Shown: positions 24,301-43,440, counted from the first letter of the stretch. The stretch: DNA of 64,000 nucleotides from a bacterium (GCA_043803945.1 JAZDJN010000012.1:58800-122799); one strand, 5' to 3'. Numbers and translations are program-made. The notes: a model not told the origin generated them from the letters alone.

Positions 24301-26115
24301 TTATTTATCGCGGCCCGCTAATTTTTGTTTTTCTCGAATGTCAAATGCCAATCGAACGGCAGGGAGAATAGCCGTTGCAAGAACCATGGTAAGCACCAAC
24401 GATGCTGCATCGGTTACGATATCATTAACTTGAAATAACCACGCATTAAAATAGAGAGCGCTAATGGTGATTATCATCAACATCAACAATGAAAATCTTA
24501 CAGGAAAGGCTTTTGTGAGAAACATACTTGTCAGAAGAAAGATAATCGATAATGGTAGATGTAACCAAGGGGCTTCTACAAGAAATCTCTTTCCAAGAAT
24601 ATTAGCAAGAGCGTCTGCGTGAATACTCATGCTTGAACTACTCTCGCCATATGTCCAAGATTCAGGATTACTCCATACAATAAACACGACCTTTCCTTTA
24701 AAATCGTTTAGATATCTATCGCCAAGCTGGCTTAGTTTCCGGCTGAACATGTCGATTGTTATCGTACTGTAAATTGAATATCCAATCAATTGGTGTCGAT
24801 GGGGAAATCGAACATCTCCATCATCGGTGCTAAAAGCATGGATTTCGGAATCTTGCCAGTTTGCTCCTTGCTTAATGAGAAAACCAGCGTGTCGGCTTAG
24901 GGGTATTAAGTCATTACCGTATTGAATGCCATCCATCGTTTGCACGGTCTGTAAATCTGCAGGATATCCCCGGAATTTTTCAATGAGGTGCAATATTGCA
25001 TAATCAGAATGAGGGTTGTCTGTTTCAAAGAACATATGAGTGAATCCCGATCCTCTTATTGCCGGCGAAAATGTTCGGGAAAAAAGCGCGCTCTTGAAAA
25101 ACAGAGAATCAGGTTCTACGTATTGATTCCGACGAGAATATGGAAGCGATGATACTCCTAAAACGGCAATATCCTGGTCCTCAAATTTTCTTCCATAGTC
25201 AATCATTACCTTGCTATTTGCATATAAAGCATATCGATAATCCACAAACACGGCTTTTGTTCCAACCTCTTTTAGGTTTTTCACGATGGCAAGGCAGCAG
25301 GAGAGATAATTCTGTACATCGCCATCCTTTGTCTCAAGCCGCAGAACTGTAACCACGGGCGCATCGGCCGCTTTGTTTCTTTTCCCTCCAATATTCATTT
25401 GAACGATAACATTATCCAATTCTCGAAAGACTCCTAACGTGTTCAAGAACTCGACAAAAATGAGAATGCCGAGAGAGCAAAGAAATAATCGTACAGTGAG
25501 ACTTCCTACTCTTTTGACAAGTCGTTCTCCTATCCACTCTCTCCATTCCTTCAAGCCCCAAAGAAACAACACTTGAATAAACATCGGATATCGAATCCGG
25601 GAAAAGAAGCGGAGAAGAATCCCACGGATTAAGAATAACCATAATAGTACGGCAATAACACCATACATCGCTGGCTCAAACAATATTGGAATAGGGATAT
25701 TAATCCAATAGTGAATTGTAAAGACCCTTATGATATGATGTCGTAAAAATTTTATTGCGAAAATGAAACAACAAACGGCAATACAAACATGTCCCGCCAC
25801 CTCCCTCCATGAGAGTTGTGTATCATCCTTCCGGTGTAAAAACTGAATGATGCGTTTAGAAGAAGCGGTGAAACCAACAGTTTTCCTGATCAAATTGAGT
25901 AGAAATTGTACTAAGTGCAGGAAGCCCATGAACATGAGCACTCCAGCCACGACATTTTGAGCTGCGTTGGTCTTCAGGAAGCTTACCGATCTCATCTGAT
26001 AAATATATCGTGAGACATGGTCTGTTGTTAATTCAATCGCTACTTCTGTGAAAAATATTGCCAGCAACAGCAGCCAAAGCATTGGTAGGAGTTTTAATTC
26101 TTTTTGCTTCTTCAT
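24301..26115 (-). CDS. CHASE2-like membrane sensor without output domain (module 1)
   Basis: Several N-terminal TMs; IVKNLKEVGTKAVFVDY, FKGKVVFI and IHADALANIL; then 3 TMs and a ~15-aa tail. Start set at MKKQKEL. Confidence 0.7.
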   Translation of the reverse strand: MKKQKELKLLPMLWLLLLAIFFTEVAIELTTDHVSRYIYQMRSVSFLKTNAAQNVVAGVLMFMGFLHLVQFLLNLIRKTVGFTASSKRIIQFLHRKDDTQLSWREVAGHVCIAVCCFIFAIKFLRHHIIRVFTIHYWINIPIPILFEPAMYGVIAVLLWLFLIRGILLRFFSRIRYPMFIQVLFLWGLKEWREWIGERLVKRVGSLTVRLFLCSLGILIFVEFLNTLGVFRELDNVIVQMNIGGKRNKAADAPVVTVLRLETKDGDVQNYLSCCLAIVKNLKEVGTKAVFVDYRYALYANSKVMIDYGRKFEDQDIAVLGVSSLPYSRRNQYVEPDSLFFKSALFSRTFSPAIRGSGFTHMFFETDNPHSDYAILHLIEKFRGYPADLQTVQTMDGIQYGNDLIPLSRHAGFLIKQGANWQDSEIHAFSTDDGDVRFPHRHQLIGYSIYSTITIDMFSRKLSQLGDRYLNDFKGKVVFIVWSNPESWTYGESSSSMSIHADALANILGKRFLVEAPWLHLPLSIIFLLTSMFLTKAFPVRFSLLMLMIITISALYFNAWLFQVNDIVTDAASLVLTMVLATAILPAVRLAFDIREKQKLAGRDK

Positions 26116-26210
26116 CTGAATCTCTTTCCTGACAATCATAGTATTTCTGCAGTGCAAACGTCGGCGTTGAAGGAAGTATAATTCTCTTCGTACGTTTATA
26201 GCCTCTCCAT

Positions 26211-26570
26211 TTACCCACTTCCAAACGAAACCACCGCAGCGACGAAGATAAACCCGAAACACAACATCGACAGAAACAGGAGCAACGATGGTAAAGGAAT
26301 AGATACCTCACGTTGGACGAGACGAGCAGATAGAAACCGATCAGAGATTGTCATGTTGCGTACTTTGGGGTTCGGTGGAACAGCTTCGCGCCTCGGCATC
26401 GGAATTGGGAGTTTCTCAAACATGGGTTGAGTATGCCAAAGCATATAAAAAAACTCTCTGCATTCTTTGCATACCCCTAAATGTGAAAAGACCTCGGTCG
26501 ATGCCTGTCGATCCAATTCATGATCGATAAATTTACTGACGAGGAATTGTATATCATCGCATCCCATCAT
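26211..26570 (-). CDS. zf-HC2 (ZAS) anti-sigma factor, single TM (module 1)
   Basis: SKFIDHEL...HLGVCKEC (HxxxCxxC); TAATG overlap with the sigma stop. Confidence 0.85.
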   Translation of the reverse strand: MMGCDDIQFLVSKFIDHELDRQASTEVFSHLGVCKECREFFYMLWHTQPMFEKLPIPMPRREAVPPNPKVRNMTISDRFLSARLVQREVSIPLPSLLLFLSMLCFGFIFVAAVVSFGSG

Positions 26571-27127
26571 TATCTCCTTTCACGATAATACGGCATAAGC
26601 TTCTTAGCGAGAGACTTCCGCGCCTTGAACAATCTTGATTCTACTGCGCTGATTGTGTCGCCGGTAATTGCTGCAATCTGTGAATACGACAGTTTTTCTA
26701 TCTGTCGAAGAACAAGAACCTCCCGGTATTCCACCTTAAGCTCTTCCAGGCAGAGATGCAGGATCTCTGACATTTCTTTCTTTACCATCACTTCATACGG
26801 TGTCTCAGTGTCAACGAGATGCTCTTCTTCCTCCGTTAACGAAGCTTTTCCATTGTGACGATGAGATTTCAGATGGGTATAGATGCTGTTTCGGGCGATT
26901 GAGAAGAGCCAATAATAAAACAACTCGGGTTTATCAAGCGAGCCCAGGTTGTGATATACTTTGAGGAATGTCGATTGCACCATATCCTCTGCTTCGTCTT
27001 GATCCTGGAGCAGACGATAGCAATACCCATACAATTGCTGACGATATTTGGTATAGAGCTGCGTGAATGACTCTTTATTCCCTGCACAAAATCTAGACAC
27101 TAACTCTTCATCGTTATAGAGCTGCAT
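26570..27127 (-). CDS. ECF RNA polymerase sigma factor (module 1)
   Basis: AEDMVQSTF, WLFSIARN, YREVLVLR, LSYSQIA, VESRLFKAR. Confidence 0.93.
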   Translation of the reverse strand: MQLYNDEELVSRFCAGNKESFTQLYTKYRQQLYGYCYRLLQDQDEAEDMVQSTFLKVYHNLGSLDKPELFYYWLFSIARNSIYTHLKSHRHNGKASLTEEEEHLVDTETPYEVMVKKEMSEILHLCLEELKVEYREVLVLRQIEKLSYSQIAAITGDTISAVESRLFKARKSLAKKLMPYYRERR

Positions 27128-27179
27128 CTCATTCCACCATCAGGGTGAGAGAATGTTCTGAATTGGTGTTCAAATATAA

Positions 27180-27206
27180 GACTTAAGAAATGAGAAAAAC
27201 TTGCTG
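27180..27206 (-). promoter_or_regulatory. Putative ECF autoregulatory promoter CAGCAAG-N16-AGTC (module 1)
   Basis: Same spacing and T-rich spacer as the motifs upstream of the other three sigma genes. Confidence 0.55.
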
Positions 27207-27359
27207 GATGTTTTTAGGAAAAATAATTATTCGCCGAAATGCTTTCGGTTACTCTCTTTTTTAGCCCCAAATATCGTTCACCATACATTGAATTTAACTC
27301 TGATACACTGTATCTTCTCTCCCGCATGGAAATTCAGCCGAACAGAATAAAATTCACGG

Positions 27360-29051
27360 ATGAATAATAAAATCAGATGTCATCTGCCTTGGGTACACTG
27401 CTGCCTTCTGCTGCTCAGTATTGTTTTCCTTCTGAGTAGTTTCACCTCCACTCACCCACGGCGATCTGACATCGCCCAAATCATCCAGGAGCTCCTCAAC
27501 AATCCGGAACAGTTCCGAACGGGAACACATCCCATAACGGTATCGGATGTTACCTTTCAATTCTACCGTCAACGTAACTTTGAACCAGCCTGGTGTAATG
27601 AGGATACTGGATCTTCGCTTGTGGACTCGCTCCTGGTTTATCTCAATGGAGCAGCAAACGATGGTTTGAACCCTGCAGACTATCATCCCTCGTTTCTCGA
27701 TTCTTTAAAGAATACTATTCCCTGCAGAGATAGTATAGACACTCGAAATCTTCATCTTGCCGCACTTGATCTTTTTCTCACCGATGCATTTTTTCGGTAT
27801 GCAGTACATCTCGCTTATGGCAAACTTAAGCCCGTATCGTTAGGATTAGTTGTTGAGCTTCCAAAAATAGAATTCGATTTTCCAGGATTGCTCGAATCAG
27901 CATTAGGCTCCTCCTCTCTACACTCCACCCTGGGTGAACTTTCTCCAAAGCACCAGTGGTTTACTGATCTCAACTCTGCCCTACAGCGAGTGAGGAGAAT
28001 GGAGAAGCTGACCGCATCATTGAAGTTCCCACGGACAGAGAGATCAAAAGATTTCCAGGCGTATCTTCAAAAACGCCTCACCATTGAAGGCGATTTAGAG
28101 GAAACCGACACAAACCGGTCTCCCCGCCCTCAGGCAGTACTGACGGCTGCCCTTCGAAGCTTTCAGTTACGCCATGGCCTTGAGCCAACCGGAAAGACCG
28201 ACAGCACCACCATCGCAGCACTCCGTATTCCCTATTCAACGAGGATCAAGCAAATTCGTGCGACGATGGAGCGATGGCGTTGGTTTCCTGCTGAATTAGG
28301 CGATCGATGTCTTCTGGTGAATATTCCCGATTTTTCCGTCTCTCTGATTGAGGACCAACAGGTTGTGGCAACACGCAGAGTCGCACTCGGTACTCCCGAG
28401 TGGCCGACACCGTTGATCAGCACAACCCTGACACACGTGGCTATCAATGCCTACTGGTATTGCCCATCATCAATTTTTAATAGACAACTCTTTGACTATG
28501 TTCGCGGCGACTCAAATTATCTGCCTCGCAACAAGATGGTGCTTTTGAGGCAACGCAACGGAACGGTAGAAGTCGTCGATCGGAAATCCATTGACTGGAA
28601 ATCTATTCGGAAGGAAGAGCTTGATGTTGTTCTTCGGCAGGATCCGGGGCCTGAAAATATCATGGGCCAATTACAAATCCGGCTTAACTCAAAGCTTGAT
28701 ATCTATCTGCATGACACTCCGTACCAGGATGATTTTTCAAAGCGCTTGCGTCTATTCAGTCATGGCTGCATCAGGGTTGAACGGCCTGCCGAGCTGGCAG
28801 AATTTGTTTTACAGGATCCGGAACGATGGAACAGGGAAACCATTGAGCATCTCATGAAAAACTTGAAGAGCCGGACAATACAAATTGAGGGAGATTTTCC
28901 TGTTCATATCGTCTATGCAACTGTTTGGGTGGATGCGGCCGGAAAACTTCAATTTCGCGATGATGTCTACGGGTGGGATCGACGGATGGATCGTGCAGGA
29001 GCGCCCCGGACACAAGTCTCAAAGCACTTTTCACGGTTACAATCGCAATAG
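27360..29051 (+). CDS. L,D-transpeptidase (YcbB/LdtD-like) with scaffold and PG-binding domains
   Basis: GLNPADY, FQLRHGLEPTG, NIPDF, RQDPGPENIMG, YLHDTP, SHGCIRV. Confidence 0.9.
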   Translation: MNNKIRCHLPWVHCCLLLLSIVFLLSSFTSTHPRRSDIAQIIQELLNNPEQFRTGTHPITVSDVTFQFYRQRNFEPAWCNEDTGSSLVDSLLVYLNGAANDGLNPADYHPSFLDSLKNTIPCRDSIDTRNLHLAALDLFLTDAFFRYAVHLAYGKLKPVSLGLVVELPKIEFDFPGLLESALGSSSLHSTLGELSPKHQWFTDLNSALQRVRRMEKLTASLKFPRTERSKDFQAYLQKRLTIEGDLEETDTNRSPRPQAVLTAALRSFQLRHGLEPTGKTDSTTIAALRIPYSTRIKQIRATMERWRWFPAELGDRCLLVNIPDFSVSLIEDQQVVATRRVALGTPEWPTPLISTTLTHVAINAYWYCPSSIFNRQLFDYVRGDSNYLPRNKMVLLRQRNGTVEVVDRKSIDWKSIRKEELDVVLRQDPGPENIMGQLQIRLNSKLDIYLHDTPYQDDFSKRLRLFSHGCIRVERPAELAEFVLQDPERWNRETIEHLMKNLKSRTIQIEGDFPVHIVYATVWVDAAGKLQFRDDVYGWDRRMDRAGAPRTQVSKHFSRLQSQ

Positions 29052-29074
29052 CAGTTAACCGTTCGCTATTACAA

Positions 29075-29124
29075 AGAAGTCTGTCTTTTTACAGAGATTA
29101 ATCAGCGGCAAAAGACGGACTTCT
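29075..29124. repeat. Inverted repeat between convergent genes (REPIN-like or bidirectional terminator)
   Basis: AGAAGTCTGTCTTTT ... AAAAGACGGACTTCT. Confidence 0.55.
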
Positions 29125-29169
29125 ACACACCCTGGTAGCAAACGGTTAGGTACGACGGCAGTTCAAATA

Positions 29170-29907
29170 CTATTTTTTCTTCTTCTTATCTGCATCGAGT
29201 TTAAATTTGAACGGCACCGTGACCCACGACGCTAACGGTTTATTATCCTTCATGGCAGGCTTGAATTTCCACTTTGCGACAGCGGCTACCGCTGCTTCTC
29301 CGAAATCCCCACGATCTGTCTTGACCAATCTTACCTGAACGGCATCGCCCGATTCATCAACAAGCACCTGCACAACGGCCTCACCCTCAGCCCCCTCTTT
29401 CTTTGCCTGTTCAGGATACACTGCAGGGACACTGTACAGAATCTCAACTTGTTTGTCTACGTTAATTGTTTTTACAGGTTTTACGTTAGAGCTTATTCCT
29501 TTGGCAGACGGTGCTTGAAACTTTGCATCATCTTTAGCCAATCGAAATTTAAATGGGATGGTAACCCACACGGCAACAGGTTTGCCTGCGATTTTAGCCG
29601 GGGAAAATTGATATTTTTTTGCAGCTTCCATAGCTGGTTTATCAAATATTTCGTCCTCACTCTTCACAATTGACACATCGGCGACATTGCCTTTTTCATC
29701 CACCCACATTTTCAGATGCACGGTTCCCTCTTTCCCTGCCCTTACAGCAAGGTCAGGATAATACGGTCTTTCTTCATGAAGGATAGTGGGATTGGTGGTC
29801 ACTTCTACGTAAACAGGCGGGGGTGGGTTCTTCTTTCCCTGTGCCCACATCAGTACAGGAAACAAGAGAACTGCCACGATGACGAGAATGCAAGTATTCT
29901 TTCTCAT
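29170..29907 (-). CDS. Secreted protein with two tandem TonB C-terminal domains (module 2)
   Basis: Signal peptide ending WAQ; two YP..A...G.EG...V...VDE.G...AA..A....F.PA....KP...WVT.PFKF repeats; AGGAG RBS. Confidence 0.85.
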   Translation of the reverse strand: MRKNTCILVIVAVLLFPVLMWAQGKKNPPPPVYVEVTTNPTILHEERPYYPDLAVRAGKEGTVHLKMWVDEKGNVADVSIVKSEDEIFDKPAMEAAKKYQFSPAKIAGKPVAVWVTIPFKFRLAKDDAKFQAPSAKGISSNVKPVKTINVDKQVEILYSVPAVYPEQAKKEGAEGEAVVQVLVDESGDAVQVRLVKTDRGDFGEAAVAAVAKWKFKPAMKDNKPLASWVTVPFKFKLDADKKKKK

Positions 29908-29927
29908 TGTATTTCTCCTTATTGAAT

Positions 29928-30356
29928 TCATTGCATGAGCGTGTTTGATGATCGCTCAATGATTACTTCCGGCATGACAAAGATTGCCTGGCTTCCATTA
30001 CTCATTTGAGTGTCTGAGGAAAACCACCAAGAACTTAAACCAACAGTCCCTGTTAGAACCATAAAGACAACGATAGCGGCGACCGGCAACGGAACTCGTT
30101 TCTGCCACAGAAGGGAAAAAACGTTTGCTCGTATTTTATGAAATGCCGGTGTTGAGAGAGGCTTGCGACTGTGTGACTCTGGCATCAGCCGTTGCGGTGC
30201 AGCATGGAGGTGCATCCTGAGCTGTATCGCCTGCCTCAGGAAGTCGCGACACTCCTCACATCCGGCGAGATGGGAAAAGAGATGCATCTCCTCGTTTCGG
30301 TCCAACTCTCCATCAAGATGCTGGCTGACGTTGATTCTATATTCATCGTGGTTCAT
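29928..30356 (-). CDS. zf-HC2 anti-sigma factor, single TM (module 2)
   Basis: SQHLDGEL...HLAGCEEC; one TM; short C-terminal tail. Confidence 0.87.
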   Translation of the reverse strand: MNHDEYRINVSQHLDGELDRNEEMHLFSHLAGCEECRDFLRQAIQLRMHLHAAPQRLMPESHSRKPLSTPAFHKIRANVFSLLWQKRVPLPVAAIVVFMVLTGTVGLSSWWFSSDTQMSNGSQAIFVMPEVIIERSSNTLMQ

Positions 30357-30375
30357 GGGTAACTCCTCTTCACGG

Positions 30376-30470
30376 CCTTCCGAAGGTTTGCAAGATATCT
30401 ACCTGTCCTTCGGAAGGCTCTATTCTTTTTAAAGGTTTCAGAGAGTAAGCTCGTAGACCTTCGGAAGGTC
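30376..30470. repeat. Cluster of REP-like palindromes (CCTTCCGAAGG / CCTTCGGAAGG) between sigma 2 and anti-sigma 2
   Basis: Units at 30376-30386, 30407-30417 and 30456-30470, plus a degenerate unit near 30425-30439. Confidence 0.7.
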
Positions 30471-30472
30471 GC

Positions 30473-31003
30473 TTATTGATAGTACTGCTTCAACTTTTCC
30501 GTTAATGCACTCCTCGCTTTGAAGATGCGCATCTTCACCGCTCCTTCCGTTGCCGAAACAATCTCCGCAATTTCCGCATAGGAGAGGTTTTCATACTCAC
30601 GCAGAACCAATGCCTCCCGATAGTCGGGTTTCAAATTCATTAACAGTTGCTGAACAATAGCGACAGTTTCTTTTGCCTCCAACTGGTGGTGCGGCGTTGT
30701 GTCATCCCATACGCTGTCAGTATCGACCTGCCCGTTCATTCGGCGTTTTCGGATTTTCATCAATGCCTCATTCCGGGCGATGCGGAAAAGCCATCGCTTG
30801 AAGAGTGCCGGATCGCGGAGAGAGGCAAGCTCCTGCTGCACCTTCAGAAATGTATCGTGCACAACATCTTCCGCATCTGCAGAGTTACCCAAGATCCGCT
30901 CGCAATACGCAAAAAGCGGGTGCTTATAGTTCTCATAGAGAGCTTCAAATGCCGCTCCATCATTTGCAAGAAGGTCGTGAACGAGTGCTAGATCCGATTT
31001 CAC
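30473..31003 (-). CDS. ECF RNA polymerase sigma factor (module 2)
   Basis: AEDVVHDTF, WLFRIARNEA, YREALVLREYENLSYAEIA, VKMRIFKAR. Confidence 0.93.
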   Translation of the reverse strand: MKSDLALVHDLLANDGAAFEALYENYKHPLFAYCERILGNSADAEDVVHDTFLKVQQELASLRDPALFKRWLFRIARNEALMKIRKRRMNGQVDTDSVWDDTTPHHQLEAKETVAIVQQLLMNLKPDYREALVLREYENLSYAEIAEIVSATEGAVKMRIFKARSALTEKLKQYYQ

Positions 31004-31027
31004 TCTGGCTTTCGGGCTTTATTAACT

Positions 31028-31053
31028 GATGCGGAAAGATGCTGAAAGTTTCC
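31028..31053 (-). promoter_or_regulatory. Putative ECF autoregulatory promoter GGAAAC-N16-CATC (module 2)
   Basis: Minus strand reads GGAAACtttcagcatctttccgCATC, 24 nt upstream of the sigma start. Confidence 0.65.
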
Positions 31054-31085
31054 GGGAGAAGGAAGGAATAATTGCCCAGGGATTC

Positions 31086-31132
31086 CGAACCGTTCCCTGA
31101 TATTCGATTTACAAGAGCAAGGGAACGGTTCG
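31086..31132. repeat. REPIN-like inverted repeat CGAACCGTTCCCT ... AGGGAACGGTTCG
   Basis: 13-bp perfect arms; identical arms recur at 33781-33827. Confidence 0.75.
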
Positions 31133-31143
31133 CTCACACCCGC

Positions 31144-32607
31144 TTATTGAGTTTCGCCAATTCCGCCCAGGTTATCGAGCTTGATGACAGGTAGAATTAG
31201 CATGGCTGTAACAATTGTGAACAGAGGATAGAAAATATCGACGAGAATGCACATTTCGTCATAGAGCAATGAACAGAGGATTATTACAGCAATTCCAAAA
31301 ACGAAATTAGCAACAAAAGCATAGAATGGTTTCAGCTTGTATACAATAATCGCAGCAATGGCAATACACAGTATGGATATCCAAATATTCTCCAATTCCA
31401 TTCGTGTGATAATTTTCTTCTGAAGTACACTCTCAAGAATAAAAGCGTCATCCCGAACAGGATTCACAATTACGATCTTCCCTTGAATGTGTTCTCTATA
31501 TTCTTCGCTTGAAAGTCGCCTGGGTGGACCGAAATTGTTCCAAGCCATTCCATAACGGGTTCCGTATTTATAAAGACCATCACGCGAATCCTTCTCCGCG
31601 GCAATTTTCATTGGATTCCATCGATTATCATCCCGCACGTACGCTCTTCCATTGTGATCAACCGGGATTGTGTAATCCCCAAAAATCATATTGTGTCCTG
31701 ATTGTTGTAAGCGGAGATCATCAGGGTAGCTATGATATTTTCTTAACAACTCAATACTCATATTGGGAACGTATCGTTCACCAGCCGGGAGAATGTAATG
31801 CATTTTAGGACCATATGGTGAACCAGAAGTGTATGTCGTTTGTACAACCTGGTGAAGCGTTGTCTGGAGAACCGAGTCTAGCGGAAAAGCTTTATCAAAA
31901 AGAGGAAGAGTCATAACAAGATTAGGGACTCTGGACAGCTCCTCCACAAATTTCCGATTAATCATTTCTCCTACAGATGCAGAATAATTAAGAAATATTG
32001 CTTTGGGACCCAGCTTACTTAACTCCATGATAAATTCTAATGAAATATTCTTTCTTTCTATTTCCCTAGAAGCTTTGTTCTTCACAACCCCTGTCCATGG
32101 AAATAAGTCAATCCAAACCACCTTCGAAGATTCTGCTTTCAAAAATGTCTTGTTTTGTAAGCCTGAAAGCGTTTCATATACCCTGATATCAATTACTTCA
32201 TCGTCGACAACTTTCATACTGTAGAACATTGTCACAATAAGAATAATAGCACAACCTGCGAGAAAGAGTTTTCCCGCTTGCGAGCTTAGCATGTAATGAA
32301 GTTGGGTAGTCCATAGATTCATCCTGGTTTGAAATCTATCACTGTATGCAACAGCAAGAAATGCCGGCAGAGATTCTTGCTTCGCCAGTTTCTTCAGCAT
32401 CTCATGGATTGGCGGAAGCAAACAAAGAATACTGAGGACAATCAGAATCCAGAACATCCAGCCAAGATTGACATGATATACCATGTGCATTCGTTGGATC
32501 GTCAACCCTGTAAGCTTGCTCGCCGGAATGCTCAGGCATGCGAAGAGGACTGCCAGACTGAGGTATATATAGAGTGCAACATTACGCTGGCTTCCATTGG
32601 TCTTCAT
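31144..32607 (-). CDS. CHASE2-like membrane sensor without output domain (module 3)
   Basis: VVWIDL.PW, LSKLGPKAIFLNY, IQGKIVIV, ILESVL; then 3 TMs (ILVDIFYPL) and a short tail. Confidence 0.7.
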   Translation of the reverse strand: MKTNGSQRNVALYIYLSLAVLFACLSIPASKLTGLTIQRMHMVYHVNLGWMFWILIVLSILCLLPPIHEMLKKLAKQESLPAFLAVAYSDRFQTRMNLWTTQLHYMLSSQAGKLFLAGCAIILIVTMFYSMKVVDDEVIDIRVYETLSGLQNKTFLKAESSKVVWIDLFPWTGVVKNKASREIERKNISLEFIMELSKLGPKAIFLNYSASVGEMINRKFVEELSRVPNLVMTLPLFDKAFPLDSVLQTTLHQVVQTTYTSGSPYGPKMHYILPAGERYVPNMSIELLRKYHSYPDDLRLQQSGHNMIFGDYTIPVDHNGRAYVRDDNRWNPMKIAAEKDSRDGLYKYGTRYGMAWNNFGPPRRLSSEEYREHIQGKIVIVNPVRDDAFILESVLQKKIITRMELENIWISILCIAIAAIIVYKLKPFYAFVANFVFGIAVIILCSLLYDEMCILVDIFYPLFTIVTAMLILPVIKLDNLGGIGETQ

Positions 32608-32638
32608 GTGTTTACATTCTCCCTTCTCGCTAATTGCC

Positions 32639-33049
32639 TTACCTTGTTTGAGAATTTCCTATTGATGGAGAAATTTCATTTTGTGGTTGTACGACAATGA
32701 CAGAGGTTGAGGCTATAATCCCCACGAAAAGAATAATCATCAGCAACATCGACGCATGAATAAAACGCGAAACTGCCTTCCTGCGTCTTACCCGAGGGTC
32801 TTGTATGGAACGAGCAGCGTTATGTTTCATTTGGTGCAAATATCCATACTGCACTTTCTTAACTACTTCATCACTTACCTTTATTGTTGGAAGCGATTGT
32901 ACACCTGAATGCAGGTGTAACAGCGACTTGAAAAAGTGCCGGCACTCTGAACAGGTATGGAGATGATAAAACAACGCACAGGAGGAGTCTTCCCCCAATT
33001 CATTATCAACAAGCTGGCTAATTTGATATTGGTATTCTTCGCAATTCAT
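32639..33049 (-). CDS. zf-HC2 anti-sigma factor, single TM (module 3)
   Basis: MNCEEY..ISQLVDNEL...HLHTCSEC; GGAGG RBS. Confidence 0.87.
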   Translation of the reverse strand: MNCEEYQYQISQLVDNELGEDSSCALFYHLHTCSECRHFFKSLLHLHSGVQSLPTIKVSDEVVKKVQYGYLHQMKHNAARSIQDPRVRRRKAVSRFIHASMLLMIILFVGIIASTSVIVVQPQNEISPSIGNSQTR

Positions 33050-33093
33050 GGTTTCCTCCACACAACTTAAACGGTCATTGACGCTTCGTCATC

Positions 33094-33639
33094 CTATACT
33101 TTGTAGTAGGGTGTAAGTTTTTTCGTTAATGCTTTTCGGACTTTGAAGAGTCTGGATTTTACAGAGCTTTCTGTCGCACCTGTGATTTCCATAATTTCCC
33201 TGTAGGAAAGCTGCTCAAATTCCCGCAGGAGAATCACCTCACGGTATTCTGGTTTCAAGGACTGAATACACTTCTCAAGCAATACATGCTCTTCCTTTTC
33301 TTCCAAACGATCCAGCGGTGTTTCGCCTCCCCAGCATTCTTCCGATTCTTCGTGAAGTTCATCGAAAAGTTTTCTCTCCCTTAAGATGCCAAAAGCTTCA
33401 TTACGTGCGATAGCAAATATCCATGCGCGAAATGATGCTGATTGCTTAACGTTAACTGCTTGCTGAAAAATTTTGAGAAATGTTTCTTGAACAACATCTT
33501 CAGCCCAATGCTCATTCTGTAATAGTCGATAACTGAATGAATAGATTTTGTCCCGATAGCGTCTTGAAAGGTTTTCAAACGCGCTGGAACTGCCGTTCTG
33601 AATCAGCATCAATAATTGTTCGTCAGTTAACGATGGCAC
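33094..33639 (-). CDS. ECF RNA polymerase sigma factor (module 3)
   Basis: AEDVVQETF, WIFAIARNEA, YREVILLREFEQLSYREI, VKSRLFK. Confidence 0.93.
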   Translation of the reverse strand: MPSLTDEQLLMLIQNGSSSAFENLSRRYRDKIYSFSYRLLQNEHWAEDVVQETFLKIFQQAVNVKQSASFRAWIFAIARNEAFGILRERKLFDELHEESEECWGGETPLDRLEEKEEHVLLEKCIQSLKPEYREVILLREFEQLSYREIMEITGATESSVKSRLFKVRKALTKKLTPYYKV

Positions 33640-33733
33640 GGTGCATCCGATTGTGATTGGTTATTATTAACATTCCAAAGTTGAACTTTCTTACCATCAT
33701 AATCAATCTCACAATCCAACCCTTCATACTGTA

Positions 33734-33760
33734 GATGGAAAAGGGAGGGAAAAGTTGCTG
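33734..33760 (-). promoter_or_regulatory. Putative ECF autoregulatory promoter CAGCAAC-N16-CATC (module 3)
   Basis: Minus strand reads CAGCAACttttccctcccttttcCATC. Confidence 0.7.
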
Positions 33761-33780
33761 GAGAAGTGGGCTAATTCGAC

Positions 33781-33827
33781 CGAACCGTTCCCTACTCTGA
33801 GATACCTCAGCGCGAGGGAACGGTTCG
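33781..33827. repeat. REPIN-like inverted repeat CGAACCGTTCCCT ... AGGGAACGGTTCG (second copy)
   Basis: Same arms and same 47-bp length as 31086-31132, with a different spacer. Confidence 0.75.
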
Positions 33828-33938
33828 ATGCAGTTATATAAATTGACTTTCCTCACCGTATTCTCTACCTTTTTGCCACATTGGGGAAAGAGGGGGGCTT
33901 CACACCTCCATCATCAGGCAGGTATCAGGAAAAGAGTA

Positions 33939-35324
33939 ATGAGCGAATCCATCATTGACCGAATACAGAAAGCACTCAGGCAGGAGGAAATTCATGCTGA
34001 GCGGATCGCCAATACCGCCCGCATGACCTTTATCGGCATCATGGGCATTGCGGCACTCTTTAATGCACCTTCTGTGAGTATGAAGGTCAACCTTTTCAAC
34101 TTCACAGCTCTGAGCTTTGCTGTTCTCTTTGGATTGATTGTTTATATCTCTCTCAAACGGGGCCGGTATGTTCCTTCCATGAAGTATATCACAACCAGCA
34201 TCGACATCGGACTTGTCTTTCTCCTGCTGCTCTATTATGCCAATGTCGAAATCCCAAGCGTCGCTCTCAAAAACTATGTCTTCCTCATCATCTTTCCGCT
34301 CATTGCTTTGACAGTATTTCGGTACGATCCCAAGCTCACACTCTTTGCCGGCACACTTGCTACATTGTTTTATCTGCTTCTCTTCTTCCTTGTTCTTGGC
34401 TCCCTTGGCGTTGAGTCGGGAGGATACAGCACGGAGCTATTCACAATTCATGTTACTTTGATCGGTCAAGGGACAAAGTTTTTGATCTTGGTCTCTTTTT
34501 CAATTCTCTGCACCTACCTCGCTTATTACACGCGCAGAGTGATCCATCAAACGGTTGAACGGGAGGTGCATCTTCAGGTCAGCAGCGAGTTGGTCGAACG
34601 GGAGCTTCAACTGGCCGCTGAAGTTCAACGGCGTTTCCTTCCCTCGACCTTTCCAGTCATCAACAACCTTGAGCTCTTTGGGAAAGTCATACAGGGAACA
34701 TTCGTCGGCGGCGACTATTGCGATTTCATACAACTCTCTGATTCATCGGTCCTGCTCATCGTGGCCGATGTTTCAGGTAAGGGAATTCCCGCCGCACTCA
34801 TTATGTCTGAAGTCTATGCTGCAGTCCATGCCCTCAGCACCGAGTACGCCAGCCCGGAACTACTGGCACAAAAGCTCAACACTTTGGTCCACAGCAGCAC
34901 GGGAAAGAAAGATTTTGTGACCCTGGTCCTCGTTGAAATTGACAGCAAGGTGAACCAGCTTTGCTATTTCAATGCAGGCCACCCTCCTCCGATCCTTTTG
35001 GTAAACGACAAAGCGATCTTGTTGGGAAAAGGGACAATCCCGCTTGGAGTGCTTGAAGAACTGCCGGGAAAAGAAAGCATTACGGTAGATTTTCCGCCGG
35101 ACAGCACATTGCTTGTGTACACAGACGGTGTGTTTGAACGGATGAATGCTGCGGGTGAACAATTTGGCATCGAGCGGATTCAGCAGCTTCTGGTTGATCG
35201 TCAATCAACCGACGCAGTTGCATTCGTCGATTGGATAATCGAACAGGTTAAACTCTTCGGTGATGGACAAGCTCTCGACGACGATTTAACGCTAGCGGTT
35301 GTATTGCGGAAGAATAGGGTGTAA
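33939..35324 (+). CDS. Membrane-bound PP2C/SpoIIE (RsbU-type) phosphatase
   Basis: Multiple TMs; ELQLAAEVQRRFLP, VGGDY, ADVSGKG, NAGHPPP, YTDG, DDLT. Confidence 0.9.
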   Translation: MSESIIDRIQKALRQEEIHAERIANTARMTFIGIMGIAALFNAPSVSMKVNLFNFTALSFAVLFGLIVYISLKRGRYVPSMKYITTSIDIGLVFLLLLYYANVEIPSVALKNYVFLIIFPLIALTVFRYDPKLTLFAGTLATLFYLLLFFLVLGSLGVESGGYSTELFTIHVTLIGQGTKFLILVSFSILCTYLAYYTRRVIHQTVEREVHLQVSSELVERELQLAAEVQRRFLPSTFPVINNLELFGKVIQGTFVGGDYCDFIQLSDSSVLLIVADVSGKGIPAALIMSEVYAAVHALSTEYASPELLAQKLNTLVHSSTGKKDFVTLVLVEIDSKVNQLCYFNAGHPPPILLVNDKAILLGKGTIPLGVLEELPGKESITVDFPPDSTLLVYTDGVFERMNAAGEQFGIERIQQLLVDRQSTDAVAFVDWIIEQVKLFGDGQALDDDLTLAVVLRKNRV

Positions 35325-35449
35325 ATCGCGAACGCTGGTAAAACAAGATCGGTTTCTCAATCCATGTCCAATCGCTGTTCTCCTTTTCCAAGAAAAACGA
35401 TTCGGTGAGAATACCTTTTTAGAATTCACAATTGATCAGGTTCGATTCG

Positions 35450-37018
35450 TTAATAATTTCCGTGTGTATTAACATCTCCAATGGTTATGAGTGTCTGCCC
35501 TTGCATTCGATGGGCGACGTTTATTGCTGGAAAAACAATCAAAGCAACCCCTACGGAGAGAAGAGGGTAGATAATATCAATGAGGATGTTGAGATGTTGA
35601 TAGAAGAAATACCCGGTGAGGAGTACCCCCATGAGCAGTACTATCATGAGGAGAAAAGAAAGAAATGGCCTCGTATGGTAGGCAATGAGTCCGGCGAGTA
35701 CCAGGGATATGATCGAAAGCCATATGAAACCGGTATCGGTTTTGTGGATCATATGGTCACTTAATATACTTTCAGTAGCAATCATAAGAGCTCGACTCGG
35801 TGTGAATAGGCCACCTTCTCTTCCAAAATTTCCTCCCATAAAAACCACTTTCCCGTTGAATACCGAATGTAATGCAGCCTCGGAAACCTGACTCAGAGGA
35901 AATGTCTCTCCTTTTACACTATCCAAATAGGATGTATAGTGAAGCAAGGTATCTTCTGATGAGCCTTTATAAAACCATAGGTCTCGCGTGTGAATAGATC
36001 TTTTTTGTGAGTATCCCTCATACCCATGCCCAAATGCCCATGCATTTCCTCTATGGAGAACTATATCACCACCTTCGAAGACAGGACATTGATCCCGAAA
36101 ATACAGAGACGATGTTCGGCTTGAAAGGCTAATTGAAAGTTTTGTATCCCCAATCAATATATCGTTTCCCCACAATCCTACGAATTGGTAGTATGGATAG
36201 CCATAATACTTTCTTAACACTCCATGAAAAAGCGGCCACCATGCCTGCCCATAGGAAATACTGGCAAGTCGTTCACTCGCCCATAAGGACTTTTCATTTA
36301 CCAGCGGTATGAAAATACCCATGCCATTCTTATCACGCAATTCTCCACTCCCATAACGAATTGATTCTCCCGGTGTTGCCAGCACCACAATATCACTATT
36401 CATTAATTTAACGATTAAGCTATCAAGATCTTTATCTAACGGGAGTTCTTGTAGTGATAAATATACTGCTTTAGCTCCTGCGGCTTTCAGCTTTTCTACA
36501 ATGGTAACACAATCACGAAGGTGTTGTTTTGGATTTGTACTGAAATTCGCGTATGAGACATTTACAACATTCGTGAAGTGTTCAGATTTCTCTCTTGCGT
36601 TGCTGACCATTGATACGAATTCGTACATCTTTCCATTGAGTTCATCGTCAGGAAGTAACCTTGTCCACGATAAGAGCACTAGAACAGAAACGATCGACAG
36701 TCCGGCCAGGAGAAAAAGACCAATCCGACGAAGAGTTGAAAATCGATTGAATTGAATATTATTTAGAAGTGAGGGAAGTACCTTCCTCGTAATTGTGCCA
36801 AGAATTTCCTTAAGCAGGGGTACAACCGAGATAAGAGACAATGTGATAAACACCAAATGAAGCCATTCTATATTGACGCTTTGTGATGCACCTGAAGATC
36901 GTGGATAGCGAACGGTGACTGTCTGTTGGTTAAAAATAATACCCATCGCCGCAAAGAACATTGCCAGGATAAAATATGGCAGAAGCGATTTGAGTTTACT
37001 GTTTGGTTTGTTACTCAT
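35450..37018 (-). CDS. CHASE2-like membrane sensor without output domain (module 4)
   Basis: IVEKLKAAGAKAVYL, FNGKVVFMG, TESIL; then 3 TMs (ILIDIIYPL). ATGA-coupled to the anti-sigma. Confidence 0.72.
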   Translation of the reverse strand: MSNKPNSKLKSLLPYFILAMFFAAMGIIFNQQTVTVRYPRSSGASQSVNIEWLHLVFITLSLISVVPLLKEILGTITRKVLPSLLNNIQFNRFSTLRRIGLFLLAGLSIVSVLVLLSWTRLLPDDELNGKMYEFVSMVSNAREKSEHFTNVVNVSYANFSTNPKQHLRDCVTIVEKLKAAGAKAVYLSLQELPLDKDLDSLIVKLMNSDIVVLATPGESIRYGSGELRDKNGMGIFIPLVNEKSLWASERLASISYGQAWWPLFHGVLRKYYGYPYYQFVGLWGNDILIGDTKLSISLSSRTSSLYFRDQCPVFEGGDIVLHRGNAWAFGHGYEGYSQKRSIHTRDLWFYKGSSEDTLLHYTSYLDSVKGETFPLSQVSEAALHSVFNGKVVFMGGNFGREGGLFTPSRALMIATESILSDHMIHKTDTGFIWLSIISLVLAGLIAYHTRPFLSFLLMIVLLMGVLLTGYFFYQHLNILIDIIYPLLSVGVALIVFPAINVAHRMQGQTLITIGDVNTHGNY

Positions 37019-37440
37019 CTCAGCACCTTCCCTCCATAACTTTGAGGATATATCTCATATTGAATTTCTTTGAAGGATTGATCATCAACCGGCATTATTA
37101 ATGTTACTGCAGAGAAAAAAAGACCTGTACTCAAGGCAAGAACAAGAATGAACCCTGCAGTAAGAAATGATCTTATTCCACGCTTCTCGGACAACGCAGT
37201 CGGAACGACATTCCGTCCGGATATATGTGTCCCACGATGTTCTGGATTGTAACTAGCATGGTATTCCATATCTCTCGGTTTTTTTGAAGAAATTTCGATA
37301 TACAACCTGAGGGATTCCTTCAGAAAGTCCCGGCACTGGCTGCACGATGTGAGGTGAAGAAAGAGATCATTCTCGTATTTCTCCTCCAGTTCATCATCAA
37401 TTAATGCGCTTACCTGCTCTTGATGCTCTTCGTGATTCAT
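37015..37440 (-). CDS. zf-HC2 anti-sigma factor, single TM (module 4)
   Basis: MNHEEH..VSALIDDEL...HLTSCSQC; GAGGAG RBS. Confidence 0.87.
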   Translation of the reverse strand: MNHEEHQEQVSALIDDELEEKYENDLFLHLTSCSQCRDFLKESLRLYIEISSKKPRDMEYHASYNPEHRGTHISGRNVVPTALSEKRGIRSFLTAGFILVLALSTGLFFSAVTLIMPVDDQSFKEIQYEIYPQSYGGKVLR

Positions 37441-37487
37441 GGCAATTCTCCTCTCACTACCCAAACTTAAACGATGACTTTTTATCC

Positions 37488-38024
37488 CTACGGGTAATAT
37501 CTCCGCACTTTATCCGCTAATGCTTTTCGCGCTTTAAAGATTCTCGATTTTACTGAGCTCTCCGTCGACTCTGTTATTGCCGCAATCTCAGCATAGGAAA
37601 GATTTTCATAAGCACGCAGTACAAGAACCTCCCGGTATTCGTACTTCAATTGACCCAGCAAGGTGTTCACAAGTTCAGATCGCTCCTGTGCAATAGTCAG
37701 ATCATGTGGTGTCTCATCATTCCAGCGCGAATCCTCGTCCAGCCGACCGTTCCGGCGGTTCTTGCGAAGATGCATCAATGCTTCATTTCGAGCAATACGG
37801 AATAACCACGACCGGAACGATTCACTCAGTCTAAGCGTCGATGCACATTGGCCTGCTTTAAGAAACGTATCTTGCACAATATCTTTCGCAACATGTCGAT
37901 CCAGGAGAATTTTGACACAGTAGGCGTACACACCTTCATAGTGTTCACGGTAAAGAAGCTCGAGCGCTTGAGAGCTCCCTTGCTGAAGTGCACGTAAGAG
38001 ATATTGTTCGTCCTGAATGTTCAA
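37488..38024 (-). CDS. ECF RNA polymerase sigma factor (module 4)
   Basis: AKDIVQDTF, WLFRIARNEA, YREVLVLRAYENLSYAEIA, VKSRIFKAR. Confidence 0.93.
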   Translation of the reverse strand: MNIQDEQYLLRALQQGSSQALELLYREHYEGVYAYCVKILLDRHVAKDIVQDTFLKAGQCASTLRLSESFRSWLFRIARNEALMHLRKNRRNGRLDEDSRWNDETPHDLTIAQERSELVNTLLGQLKYEYREVLVLRAYENLSYAEIAAITESTESSVKSRIFKARKALADKVRRYYP

Positions 38025-38080
38025 TTCAGTATTCTCGGATTGCGGTCATAGGAACAAGGACGGTAGCCTTTCTGCGTAAA

Positions 38081-38107
38081 GATGCAGAAAGAAGAGAAAA
38101 GTTGCTG
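38081..38107 (-). promoter_or_regulatory. Putative ECF autoregulatory promoter CAGCAAC-N16-CATC (module 4)
   Basis: Minus strand reads CAGCAACttttctcttctttctgCATC. Confidence 0.7.
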
Positions 38108-38214
38108 TGGAAGGATGAAAAAGATGATAGAGAAATGAACTATATTCCGCGGAACAAGAACAGCTCTCTCCAGCGTTATAGCAGATGAAGTGGTTTGCGA
38201 AAGGAGTGAACAAC

Positions 38215-38793: not shown

Positions 38794-38975
38794 GGGTGAT
38801 GCTACGCGAGTCCTTCTTGAGATAGGTATTGAACATCTGTTTCCATATAATCACGCACCTCTTGACTTCCAGAAAATAATAGAAGAAGTTTGTTTCGCAT
38901 ATTCATGTGTCACGGTAGAACCGTGACACCCGTGCTTTTCGTTTTGGACGACCCACGTTACTAATCGGAGCATGT

Positions 38976-42191: not shown

Positions 42192-42194
42192 ATA

Positions 42195-43109: not shown

Positions 43110-43174
43110 CAGAACAAATCTTCATTATTGAGAATATGCCGTACCAATGGTGATTAGTTAATTATCAAAAAAGG

Positions 43175-43396: not shown

Positions 43397-43440
43397 ATAT
43401 ACCTCCTTATTATTTAATCATCACCATTAGTACGGTTTCT

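Follow-up and report, generated by a model that had tools for sequence, protein, structure and literature searches.

Within a 64,000-nt stretch of bacterial DNA (GCA_043803945.1 JAZDJN010000012.1:58800-122799; hereafter the window, with coordinates counted from its first letter), four minus-strand operons each encode an ECF sigma factor, a single-pass zf-HC2 anti-sigma factor and a third protein, as identified by ORF calling and Pfam searches. The locus raises the question of what this third protein does, and whether it could be the sensor that signals through the anti-sigma. The reading preferred here, in which we place about as much confidence as doubt, is that the four modules are copies of a lineage-specific ECF cassette whose envelope partner serves as a detached sensor of the anti-sigma.

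Organization of the four modules

The original prediction of four minus-strand sigma/zf-HC2/third-gene triplets was borne out by ORF calls and Pfam domains (Table 1). The modules are co-oriented, as had been proposed, but they are not strictly in tandem, since a plus-strand gene intervenes between modules 1 and 2 and another between modules 3 and 4. The sigma stop and the anti-sigma start share 1 nt in module 1, and the last 4 nt of the anti-sigma gene are also the first 4 of the third gene in modules 2 and 4. The true start of the third ORF of module 1 is probably near Met50 (about 26115), where its paralogues align. An exported-looking MsrA gene (Pfam) adjoins module 4.

Table 1. Coordinates of module genes, intervening genes and predicted promoters in the window
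Feature	Coordinates	Strand	Evidence
Module 1 ECF sigma, 185 aa	26570..27127	-	Pfam Sigma70_r2 1.5e-17, Sigma70_r4_2 1.4e-14; family profile 305 bits
Module 1 zf-HC2 anti-sigma, 119 aa, TM 96-114, 5-aa outside tail	26211..26570	-	Pfam zf-HC2 2.3e-6; hydropathy
Module 1 third gene, CHASE2-like membrane protein	24301..26262	-	Family profile A4 E 4e-55; tblastn to canonical CHASE2 gene of the same genome, E 1.9e-4
Module 1 promoter, -35 AGCAAGTTTT, 12-nt spacer, xxTCT -10	27173..27208	-	In-register motif; window scan score 24.1
L,D-transpeptidase (Scaffold + PG_binding_1 + YkuD), divergent, between modules 1 and 2	27360..29051	+	Pfam
Module 2 ECF sigma, 176 aa	30473..31003	-	Pfam Sigma70_r2 + Sigma70_r4_2
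Module 2 zf-HC2 anti-sigma, 142 aa, TM 90-108, 34-aa tail	29928..30356	-	Pfam zf-HC2 1.6e-6; hydropathy
Module 2 third gene, exported double TonB_C protein	29170..29931	-	Pfam TonB_C 6.3e-45, 2 stretches
Module 2 promoter, weakest of eleven, -10 ending TCA instead of TCT	31021..31056	-	Score 24.5 (full matrix), 14.7 (reduced matrix)
Module 3 ECF sigma, 181 aa	33094..33639	-	Pfam Sigma70_r2 + Sigma70_r4_2
Module 3 zf-HC2 anti-sigma, 140 aa, TM 106-124, 16-aa tail	32639..33061	-	Pfam zf-HC2 2e-5; hydropathy
Module 3 third gene, CHASE2-like, 487 aa	31144..32607	-	hhalign 98.6% to CHASE2; Atlas structure matches; AF2 model; topology
Module 3 promoter	33727..33762	-	Score 25.7
Membrane SpoIIE/PP2C phosphatase, divergent, between modules 3 and 4	33828..35324	+	Pfam SpoIIE 4.6e-44
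Module 4 ECF sigma, 178 aa	37488..38024	-	Pfam Sigma70_r2 + Sigma70_r4_2
Module 4 zf-HC2-type anti-sigma, 149 aa, TM 105-123, 26-aa tail	37015..37464	-	zf-HC2 20.0 bits (cut-off 22.2); HxxxCxxC aligned
Module 4 third gene, CHASE2-like, 522 aa	35450..37018	-	Member of family alignment A4; 3 TM / 312-aa loop / 3 TM
Module 4 promoter, best of eleven	38074..38109	-	Score 28.5

Sigma and anti-sigma factors

All four window sigmas (176-185 aa) match Sigma70_r2 and Sigma70_r4_2 above cut-off, in keeping with the two-region architecture and the length (about 170-200 aa) of group 4, or ECF, sigma factors, and all exceed the 42.9-bit cut-off of the NCBIfam model TIGR02937 (sigma70-ECF). Their matches to NCBIfam equivalogs are all below cut-off (e.g. 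98-122 bits against 130 for sigma_PG0214). The predicted paralogy agrees with the 42-43% identity of the sigmas of modules 2-4 to that of module 1. When the genome was searched with the sigma family profile, 11 ORFs scored at least 191 bits and the other 18 ECF-like ORFs at most 125 bits; because of this gap, a set of 11 paralogous sigmas lies far beyond chance. The sigma of module 2 clusters with that of module 4 (SH-aLRT 85 in a 19-row tree; 81 for a four-row clade in a second tree).

The zf-HC2 domain was detected above the Pfam cut-off in three of the four window anti-sigmas, module 4 being the one below it, and HxxxCxxC is present in all four. The zinc-ligand positions (Cys/His-x25-His-x3-Cys-x2-Cys) are retained in 15 of 15 aligned anti-sigmas: the H, C and C do not vary, and Cys fills the first position in 13 sequences, His in the other two. 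By these features the window anti-sigmas conform to the class I anti-sigmas of the ZAS (zf-HC2) type, and are predicted to bind zinc and sigma. Each carries a single TM helix, predicted by hydropathy, followed by 5-34 residues outside, in line with the tail of about 3-30 residues first estimated. Conservation of helix and tail is weak, with pairwise identities averaging 17% and 14%, so that no conserved docking surface is visible. A fused anti-sigma-CHASE2 protein was searched for and none was found, which is a result of little weight.

Module family and classes of third genes

Eleven such modules, including the four of the window, are present in this genome, and 25 others were collected from 17 genomes of the same order that represent several families. 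The anti-sigma gene adjoins the sigma gene in all 36 loci, and a co-oriented third gene could be assessed in 35. The triplet is conserved in relatives, and its third genes, rather than varying randomly, belong to four recurring classes: CHASE2-like (15), TonB_C (10, namely module 2 and nine modules of relatives), a three-gene membrane set (6) and DUF4097 (4, all in relatives: L092, L093, L094 and L096). In two modules of relatives (L080 and L085), the separate third gene encodes TonB_C together with CarboxypepD_reg, and an additional TPR + Redoxin gene lies downstream. The identifiable classes are input-side domains; none is an enzyme, a transporter or pump, or a structural envelope protein.

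In the sigma tree, module 4, with its CHASE2-like protein, is sister to two TonB_C modules (SH-aLRT 96), and a module with the three-gene set is sister to two CHASE2-like modules (SH-aLRT 99); these groupings show that close sigma relatives have exchanged partner classes. Third-protein and sigma trees disagree in detail (the module 1 sigma groups with G018b, its third protein with C85a), long branches making these positions uncertain. Median end branches are 0.53 for sigmas, 1.59 for anti-sigmas and 1.79 for partners; slow sigmas combined with fast anti-sigmas and partners are the pattern that would be expected if the input side diversifies.

CHASE2-like and TonB_C third proteins

The third proteins of modules 1, 3 and 4 gave no match to Pfam or NCBIfam models, CHASE2 (PF05226) included, even at E 0.1, and they were still unmatched when the genome was searched with the CHASE2 model at E 10. 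This model matches 3 of the 36 members of the CHASE2-like family, weakly (best E 0.0037). Alignment of the 36-member family with hhalign to the four canonical CHASE2 domains that this genome encodes gave a probability of 98.6% over 318 columns with an E-value of 8.3e-16, the homologous stretch being the periplasmic domain and the three TM helices after it. In a structure search of the ESM Atlas, nine of the ten rows gave CHASE2 as the family aligned, and 54% of the members of the tenth cluster contain it (TM by query 0.59-0.65); CHASE2 clusters lacking an output domain are also found there (rows 4 and 7). Weak phmmer matches carry SpoIIE or cyclase outputs. On these comparisons, the three proteins are very divergent, output-less CHASE2 homologues, which agrees with the initial assignment of CHASE2-like proteins to modules 1, 3 and 4 and of a double TonB_C protein to module 2. 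The latter has its own N-terminal hydrophobic segment (residues 14-32).

CHASE2 is a sensor module, typically placed N-terminal to a cytoplasmic output such as a cyclase, kinase, GGDEF/EAL or SpoIIE domain. The four canonical CHASE2 proteins of this genome (ORFs of 660-922 aa) are fused to cytoplasmic regions; the sigma-linked proteins do not follow this design, because in 12 of 12 the C-tail is only 10-26 aa and holds no Pfam domain. The module 3 protein is predicted to comprise three TM helices, a periplasmic domain of about 270 aa, three further TM helices and a 15-aa C-tail without an output domain (AF2 model: pLDDT 83, pTM 0.76). In module 1 the N-terminal TM region is enlarged, with five predicted TMs ahead of the periplasmic loop. 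At least three predicted TMs precede this loop in 11 of the 12 sigma-linked CHASE2-like proteins; all four canonical domains have a single one, as do 6 of the 7 stand-alone relatives encoded away from any sigma. The sigma-linked proteins carry a specific addition, an N-terminal two-helix membrane hairpin. The window proteins share the overall topology of canonical CHASE2 proteins, but they have these two extra helices, lack a cytoplasmic output and are too divergent for the Pfam model.

Predicted promoters and regulon

A single in-register ECF-type promoter, predicted as AGCAACTTTT-N12-xxTCT, precedes all 11 family sigma genes and hardly occurs anywhere else in the genome; that of module 1 sits 45 nt upstream of the sigma ORF. 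The association of an adjacent anti-sigma gene with a predicted autoregulatory promoter of the AAC...(C)GTC type is characteristic of ECF systems. In the window scan, no family promoter was found between anti-sigma and third gene, or before the YkuD gene (best plus-strand intergenic score -3.7). In the genome scan, the 11-site matrix, which is built on paralogous DNA and possibly too narrow, recovered above noise only the modules' own operons, together with a degenerate module copy located on a different contig and a single site upstream of an acyl-CoA dehydrogenase/IMPDH operon. Lower-scoring matches are background (41, versus 24-32 in shuffled genomes). Since almost nothing else is found, the own operon is the only clear product of sigma activity.

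Because the scan yields almost no targets beyond the operons, the third gene could, on this evidence, equally be an output: an envelope protein needed under stress, comparable to OatA in the SigV response of Bacillus subtilis, and produced by a sigma that mainly drives its own operon, the anti-sigma being controlled otherwise. That the third genes show no promoter of their own and are predicted to be transcribed from that of the sigma is compatible with this possibility, and the TPR + Redoxin gene past two TonB_C modules is a plausible effector. We nevertheless hold it to be the less probable explanation, for no enzyme, pump or structural envelope protein occurs among the identifiable classes; DUF4097, a sensor fold without output and a TonB_C module found elsewhere inside an anti-sigma would be odd effectors; and a positive loop yielding just a sensor-like protein offers no obvious benefit. 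The part of the ECF classification devoted to ECF255 also describes the same domains as fused to an anti-sigma (PMC7826278).

Proposed mechanism

If the third protein is a detached sensor, all that would remain of the anti-sigma is the cytoplasmic zinc-finger domain that binds sigma, a single membrane helix and a short tail of variable sequence. The extracytoplasmic part would be supplied by a separate, co-transcribed envelope protein of one of four interchangeable classes: an output-less CHASE2-fold protein with an N-terminal hairpin, an exported TonB_C protein, a trio of small membrane proteins, or a 'toastrack' protein with DUF4097. At rest, the partner would sit on the membrane helix or tail of the anti-sigma and stabilise it; a signal, possibly a ligand, at its periplasmic domain would loosen this contact, and the anti-sigma would become a substrate of a site-2 (M50) protease, for which it may be ready because its outside tail, even uncut, has the shortness of one left by site-1 cleavage. 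The freed sigma would then transcribe its own operon from the family promoter, and possibly a regulon beyond it. Two M50 site-2 protease homologues are encoded in the genome, the M50 family being also present in 14 of 14 control genomes.

Such a role of the third protein is supported by the 4-nt overlaps in modules 2 and 4, the conserved adjacency, the lack of an internal promoter, the input-side nature of the partners, the extra TMs specific to sigma-linked CHASE2-like proteins, the fast divergence of anti-sigmas and partners beside slow sigmas, and the precedent of CnrX/CnrY/CnrH. Counting against it are the weak conservation of the anti-sigma helix and tail, the disagreement between the trees, the lack of a fused anti-sigma-CHASE2 protein in the search and a promoter scan that points to little but the operons. 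This role was weighed against two further explanations. In one, the anti-sigma itself would sense cytoplasmic thiol or oxidative stress through its zinc finger, as RsrA does, the third protein being an accessory or a target. The retention of all zinc ligands, weak matches to RsrA-family NCBIfam models, the MsrA gene beside module 4 and the Redoxin gene after sister modules in relatives would fit, but this explanation appears improbable: the RsrA matches (16-20 bits) are far under the cut-off of 62.5, the anti-sigmas are membrane-anchored, the zinc site is structural in many membrane anti-sigmas, and one cytoplasmic redox signal would hardly account for 11 paralogues whose envelope partners are of four kinds. 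Equally doubtful is a constitutive co-anti-sigma or stabiliser without perception, modelled on RseB or YhdK, with the signal entering elsewhere: it shares the adjacency and co-transcription evidence, and so short a tail may have to be shielded from the site-2 protease, but it leaves unexplained why partners with four unrelated folds are kept and swapped, one of them a sensor fold with some 270-320 residues in the periplasm.

Comparison with known systems

A detached sensor recalls FecI/FecR/FecA cell-surface signalling, in which a separate envelope protein relays the signal to the anti-sigma and the periplasmic domain of FecR is large. Both are three-component ECF pathways, and the TonB_C class hints at a contact with TonB-box proteins. 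A FecIRA system was rejected, as no Pfam match to FecR, Plug or TonB_dep_Rec was obtained among the 16 window proteins from 24301 to 40946.

As the portion of the classification on ECF272 presents it, this mostly gammaproteobacterial group has RskA-like anti-sigmas and DUF4097 as the conserved +2 gene (PMC7826278), and part of another report links this domain to membrane-signal transduction (PMC11237479). The likeness lies in gene order, since four modules of relatives likewise have a DUF4097 gene behind those of the ECF sigma and its single-pass anti-sigma; here, in contrast, DUF4097 is one of four alternative partners within one sigma family.

The original prediction stated that no such system had been described, which does not hold. 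CnrY is not a zf-HC2 protein, in contrast to the window anti-sigmas. In CnrH/CnrY/CnrX of Cupriavidus metallidurans, as outlined in the relevant section of the source, an ECF sigma, a small single-pass anti-sigma and a separate inner-membrane periplasmic sensor are co-encoded and autoregulated (PMC6851896), which makes it a separate-sensor precedent. The window gene arrangement (sigma, small anti-sigma and separate membrane protein) fits this design, with the third protein as a putative counterpart of the sensor. In the same section CnrX is a small metal-binding dimer, versus CHASE2, TonB_C or DUF4097 here, and one Cnr system compares with 11 modules with four partner classes; the likeness is one of design, and no sequence relation is claimed.

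For ECF255 (ECF classification 2.0, Bacteroidetes), the corresponding part of the source describes a single-pass +1 anti-sigma whose extracytoplasmic domain contains TonB_C and CarboxypepD_reg, with a -10 of GCATCT, exactly matched by 4 of the 11 promoters here, and a -35 of TATGGAT, versus AGCAACTTTT (PMC7826278). An ECF255-type anti-sigma was rejected for the window, where the anti-sigmas stop 5-34 aa past the TM; TonB_C is encoded by an ORF of its own, which begins with a hydrophobic segment and follows the gene of a short zf-HC2 anti-sigma, whereas in ECF255 it is inside the anti-sigma. By analogy, the presence of these domains within an anti-sigma is the best support for the proposed detached sensor. 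A literature search found no published description tying CHASE2 to ECF sigma factors; apart from this link, the window modules are a lineage-specific variant of a known separate-sensor ECF design.

Module architecture

Each of the four minus-strand operons (modules 1 to 4) is led by an ECF sigma factor gene (176-185 aa, Sigma70_r2 and Sigma70_r4_2 by Pfam), the other three sigmas being 42-43% identical to that of module 1. The second gene encodes a protein of 119-149 aa with an N-terminal zf-HC2 anti-sigma domain, which exceeded the Pfam cut-off in three of the four proteins (module 4: 20.0 versus 22.2 bits) and contains the HxxxCxxC motif in all four. By hydropathy prediction every anti-sigma has one membrane helix, followed by 5, 34, 16 and 26 residues in modules 1 to 4, respectively. 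The third gene (hereafter the partner) encodes in module 2 an exported protein with a double TonB_C domain (Pfam). Those of modules 1, 3 and 4 gave no match in Pfam or NCBIfam, and their products share only about 20% mutual identity. The module 1 protein has approximately 100 extra residues at its N-terminus, where 5 transmembrane (TM) helices are predicted versus 3 in the others; its start is ambiguous, as the GTG at 26262 overlaps the anti-sigma gene and the Met aligned with the paralogues lies near 26115.

Plus-strand genes between the modules encode an L,D-transpeptidase and a SpoIIE phosphatase. Just upstream of the module 2 and module 3 promoters lies a palindrome of roughly 45 nt, the arms of which (13-14 nt) are identical at the two sites; the arm words occur 8-16 times in the genome, some of them at sites unrelated to modules, and the element is probably REP-like. 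The coordinates of the features discussed are collected in the table below.

Coordinates and characteristics of features in the window, elsewhere in the genome and in related genomes (L0xx, locus handles in the genome itself or in relatives)
Feature	Location	Strand	Remarks
Module 1 CHASE2-like gene	window 24301-26262	-	
Palindromic element, module 2	window ~31075-31140		
Palindromic element, module 3	window ~33780-33840		
MsrA gene	window 38185-38793	+	Hydrophobic N-terminus; divergent from module 4
M1-family peptidase gene	window 38976-40946	+	C-terminal Por_Secre_tail (type IX secretion sorting domain); fits a Bacteroidota-type organism
Low G+C segment	window 42001-44000		G+C 0.30 versus 0.45-0.50 in the rest of the window
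Three-gene set	L007:7056-9180	-	
Three-gene set	L008:6285-8367	+	
Three-gene set	L008:9787-11734	+	
Stand-alone CHASE2-like gene	L009:6637-7965	+	Two predicted TM helices
Stand-alone CHASE2-like gene	L009:8242-9468	+	
Stand-alone CHASE2-like gene	L011:3787-5082	+	
Sigma region-2/TM ORF	L010:3469-4062 (C13:56968-57561)	+	197 aa
Promoter match outside modules	L065:5279-5314 (C16:239313)	-	Score 20.7-26.3
TPR + Redoxin/AhpC-TSA gene	L080:1136-3007	-	620-670 aa; follows the TonB_C/CarboxypepD_reg third gene
TPR + Redoxin/AhpC-TSA gene	L085:3271-5289	+	620-670 aa; follows the TonB_C/CarboxypepD_reg third gene
Broken double TonB_C third gene	L090:4124-4808	-	ORFs of 159 aa and 77 aa; frameshift or assembly error

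CHASE2 homology and membrane topology of the third proteins

CHASE2 is a common sensor domain, and the third proteins of modules 1, 3 and 4 are homologues of it. A full HMMER scan of the module 3 protein against 1.84 billion representatives recovered a small family of 67 proteins at E<=0.001 (41 at <=1e-10), mostly of 480-520 aa, and the alignment of 36 of these proteins, those of modules 3 and 4 among them, was used as a profile, which matched the module 1 protein with an E value of 4e-55. When this alignment was compared by hhalign with that of the genome's four canonical CHASE2 domains, a probability of 98.6% was obtained (E 8e-16) over 318 columns, which take in the periplasmic domain as well as the three C-terminal helices. 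A structure search of the ESM Atlas gave CHASE2 as the aligned family for nine rows out of ten; in the remaining cluster, 54% of the members had CHASE2. Pfam's CHASE2 model matched only 3 of the 36 aligned proteins, and weakly; four weak phmmer matches carried SpoIIE or cyclase outputs, and a homologue search with the module 4 third protein returned only itself. An AlphaFold2 model of the module 3 third protein (pLDDT 83, pTM 0.76) had no Foldseek match in the PDB at E<=0.001, and the best Z of the wide VIA-align search (9.0, about 110 residues) concerned the helical membrane part only and lies within the range common for helical bundles. The PDB searches found no solved structure related to the periplasmic domain, and none of CHASE2.

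Of 12 sigma-linked CHASE2-like proteins, 11 have at least three predicted helices ahead of the periplasmic loop, and the C-terminal tails measure 10-26 aa. A single pre-loop helix was found in all four canonical CHASE2 domains and in six of seven shorter stand-alone CHASE2-like relatives of about 410-460 aa, which have no family sigma (a sigma paralogous to those of the window) as neighbour. The extra N-terminal helices are, at the level of topology prediction, specific to the sigma-linked proteins. Region-wise conservation does not single out this hairpin (23%, versus 26% in the periplasmic part and 34% in the C-terminal TM helices). In the three stand-alone genes of the table (408-442 aa) the hairpin is absent from two; two of the three follow one another in tandem, and some 2.2 kb away lies a divergent ECF/anti-sigma pair of another type, whose sigma reaches 64 bits with the sigma profile.

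Distribution of the family and third-gene classes

Profiles of the window proteins split the 29 ECF-like ORFs of the genome into 11 at >=191 bits and 18 at <=125 bits, and a paralogous anti-sigma adjoins all 11 of the former. Their third genes are CHASE2-like (7), TonB_C (1) or a set of three small membrane proteins (3). Family sigmas were retained in relatives at >=170 bits, which gave 21 more in 13 of 40 genomes, and a search of the class with the CHASE2-like profile yielded 4 modules more. The anti-sigma gene is adjacent at 36/36 loci and the third genes fall into recurring classes: 15 CHASE2-like, 10 TonB_C-containing (two also with CarboxypepD_reg and one split by a frameshift), 6 three-gene sets and 4 DUF4097, the third gene being unreadable at one locus (contig end). 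The gene triplet is conserved in relatives. Among 401 genomes sampled from the class and 401 from the phylum, the CHASE2-like family was confined to families of the window's own order. A locus search queried with the sigma, not with the third protein, led to 14 distantly related ECF loci in other phyla; none had a CHASE2-like neighbour, a result that is uninformative for the distribution.

The three-gene set, which matches no Pfam family, consists of a first protein of about 215-230 aa and a second of about 267 aa, both having 3 TM helices and a soluble C-terminal domain, and of one of 145-165 aa with 3-4 TM helices. The C-terminal domain of the second protein has a weak likeness in the Atlas to pilin-like folds (TM by query 0.34-0.41). 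The possibility that the set is a split CHASE2-like gene was rejected, since hhalign gave a probability of 1.8% for its first protein against the CHASE2-like family.

An additional ORF on contig C13 of the genome joins a sigma region 2 (Pfam 1.8e-12), near-identical in places to the module 4 sigma, to three TM helices that resemble the CHASE2-like C-terminus (37% identity to that of module 4 over 105 aa); it looks like a module collapsed by internal deletion.

Evolution of the modules

On a sigma tree of 35 modules, third-gene classes require 10 changes, versus a mean of 17.4 when shuffled (0/200 shuffles as low); third genes are not distributed at random. The classes are clustered, yet not monophyletic: two TonB_C modules form the sister group of module 4, which is CHASE2-like (SH-aLRT 96), a module with the three-gene set groups as sister with two CHASE2-like ones (SH-aLRT 99), and at least three changes are forced for the CHASE2-like class on the starred branches alone. 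Several paralogues have orthologues in other genomes (e.g. module 1 with module G018b, SH-aLRT 99), and the expansion of the modules is therefore old. Anti-sigma and partner evolve faster than the sigma, which fits diversifying inputs; long branches limit what a comparison of the sigma, anti-sigma and third-protein trees can tell about their congruence.

Promoters and candidate targets

All 11 family sigma genes of the genome are preceded, at 4-95 nt from the ORF start, by AGCAA(C/G)TTTT, 12 bases and xxTCT in exact register. In a whole-genome scan with a matrix limited to these two elements, ten module promoters scored 21-28.5 and that of module 2 scored 14.7, under the cut-off used; the decayed module copy on C13 is preceded, at 78 nt, by a family promoter scoring 23.4. 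The only strong match outside the modules, on contig C16 (20.7 with this matrix), lies downstream of a sigma-54 response regulator gene and 222 nt upstream of a gene row for acyl-CoA dehydrogenase, IMP dehydrogenase and M24 peptidase, and may be a chance match or a true target. Other matches at >=15 are background (41, versus 24-32 in shuffled genomes), and the window scan showed no family promoter in front of the divergent neighbours, nor one separating anti-sigma and third gene. As the matrix was built from paralogous DNA, it may overlook true targets whose sites are looser. With no clear target but the operon itself, the third gene could simply be an output of its sigma and not its input, a serious rival explanation considered as less likely than not.

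A proposed split anti-sigma with a detached partner

The best-supported reading is that of a split anti-sigma, in which a minimal ZAS anchor and an extracytoplasmic module are encoded separately. It is favoured because, in the ECF classification (PMC7826278), the single-pass anti-sigma of ECF255 has an outside region made of TonB_C together with a domain of the carboxypeptidase-regulatory-like type, whereas at loci L080 and L085 the same domains form a separate third gene; this domain-fusion argument is the strongest indirect support. In the same source, DUF4097 is a known +2 gene of ECF272, and another study describes it as a partner in membrane-stress signalling (PMC11237479). The partner would shield the short-tailed anti-sigma from a site-2 protease until it perceives a signal; two M50 site-2 protease homologues are encoded in the genome. 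We infer contact between partner and anti-sigma, sensing and proteolysis. Complex prediction for the module 3 third protein and anti-sigma residues 55-140, run with the respective family alignments and without controls, scored 0.01 versus a mark of 0.32, which speaks neither for nor against binding. The poor conservation of the anti-sigma helix and tail counts against a split anti-sigma. In a search for longer proteins with the anti-sigma alignment nothing scored, and no fused CHASE2 anti-sigma was seen, which is weak evidence.

That the anti-sigma itself is redox-sensing, as the conserved four-ligand zinc motif of the anti-sigmas and the nearby MsrA and Redoxin genes could suggest, is considered as improbable. 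The sigmas of L080 and L085, where the Redoxin gene follows the third gene, are sisters of that of module 4, which adjoins the MsrA gene, and this hints that the clade handles envelope oxidative damage.

Within the split anti-sigma reading, it is tentatively proposed, as a possibility somewhat short of even, that an output-less CHASE2 with an extra N-terminal hairpin signals sideways in the membrane to a single-pass anti-sigma (the first CHASE2-to-sigma-factor pathway), and that one sigma/anti-sigma chassis takes at least four unrelated, repeatedly swapped plug-in sensors, i.e. a modular ECF platform with 11 parallel channels per cell.

Among the signalling devices of bacteria, ECF sigma factors are very abundant, yet, to our knowledge, the input of most ECF groups is unknown. 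If the third proteins are detached sensors, these modules would constitute a natural experiment with one chassis and four input modules, and would reveal how anti-sigmas acquire, lose or detach their sensor domains. Specificity could then be dissected in a single organism on 11 channels that are related yet separate, and a simple transcriptional read-out would open a route to what CHASE2 perceives. If the third proteins are only outputs, what remains is a lineage-specific ECF group whose regulon is unusually small.

Comparison with known systems

Literature searches gave no publication that connects CHASE2 with ECF sigma factors or their anti-sigmas. The available part of the ECF classification supplement (PMC7826278) does not mention CHASE2, and would not give this name to the present proteins anyway; it mentions Ignavibacteriae for ECF25s9, ECF251 and ECF270, none with this gene context. 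The original prediction that no such system had been described is not right, because CnrH/CnrY/CnrX (PMC6851896) combines a sigma, a small anti-sigma and a separate membrane sensor according to the same three-part logic. What we rate as new beside it is an ECF family restricted to one lineage, whose third component is detached and exchangeable, together with a sigma-linked, output-less CHASE2 subfamily.
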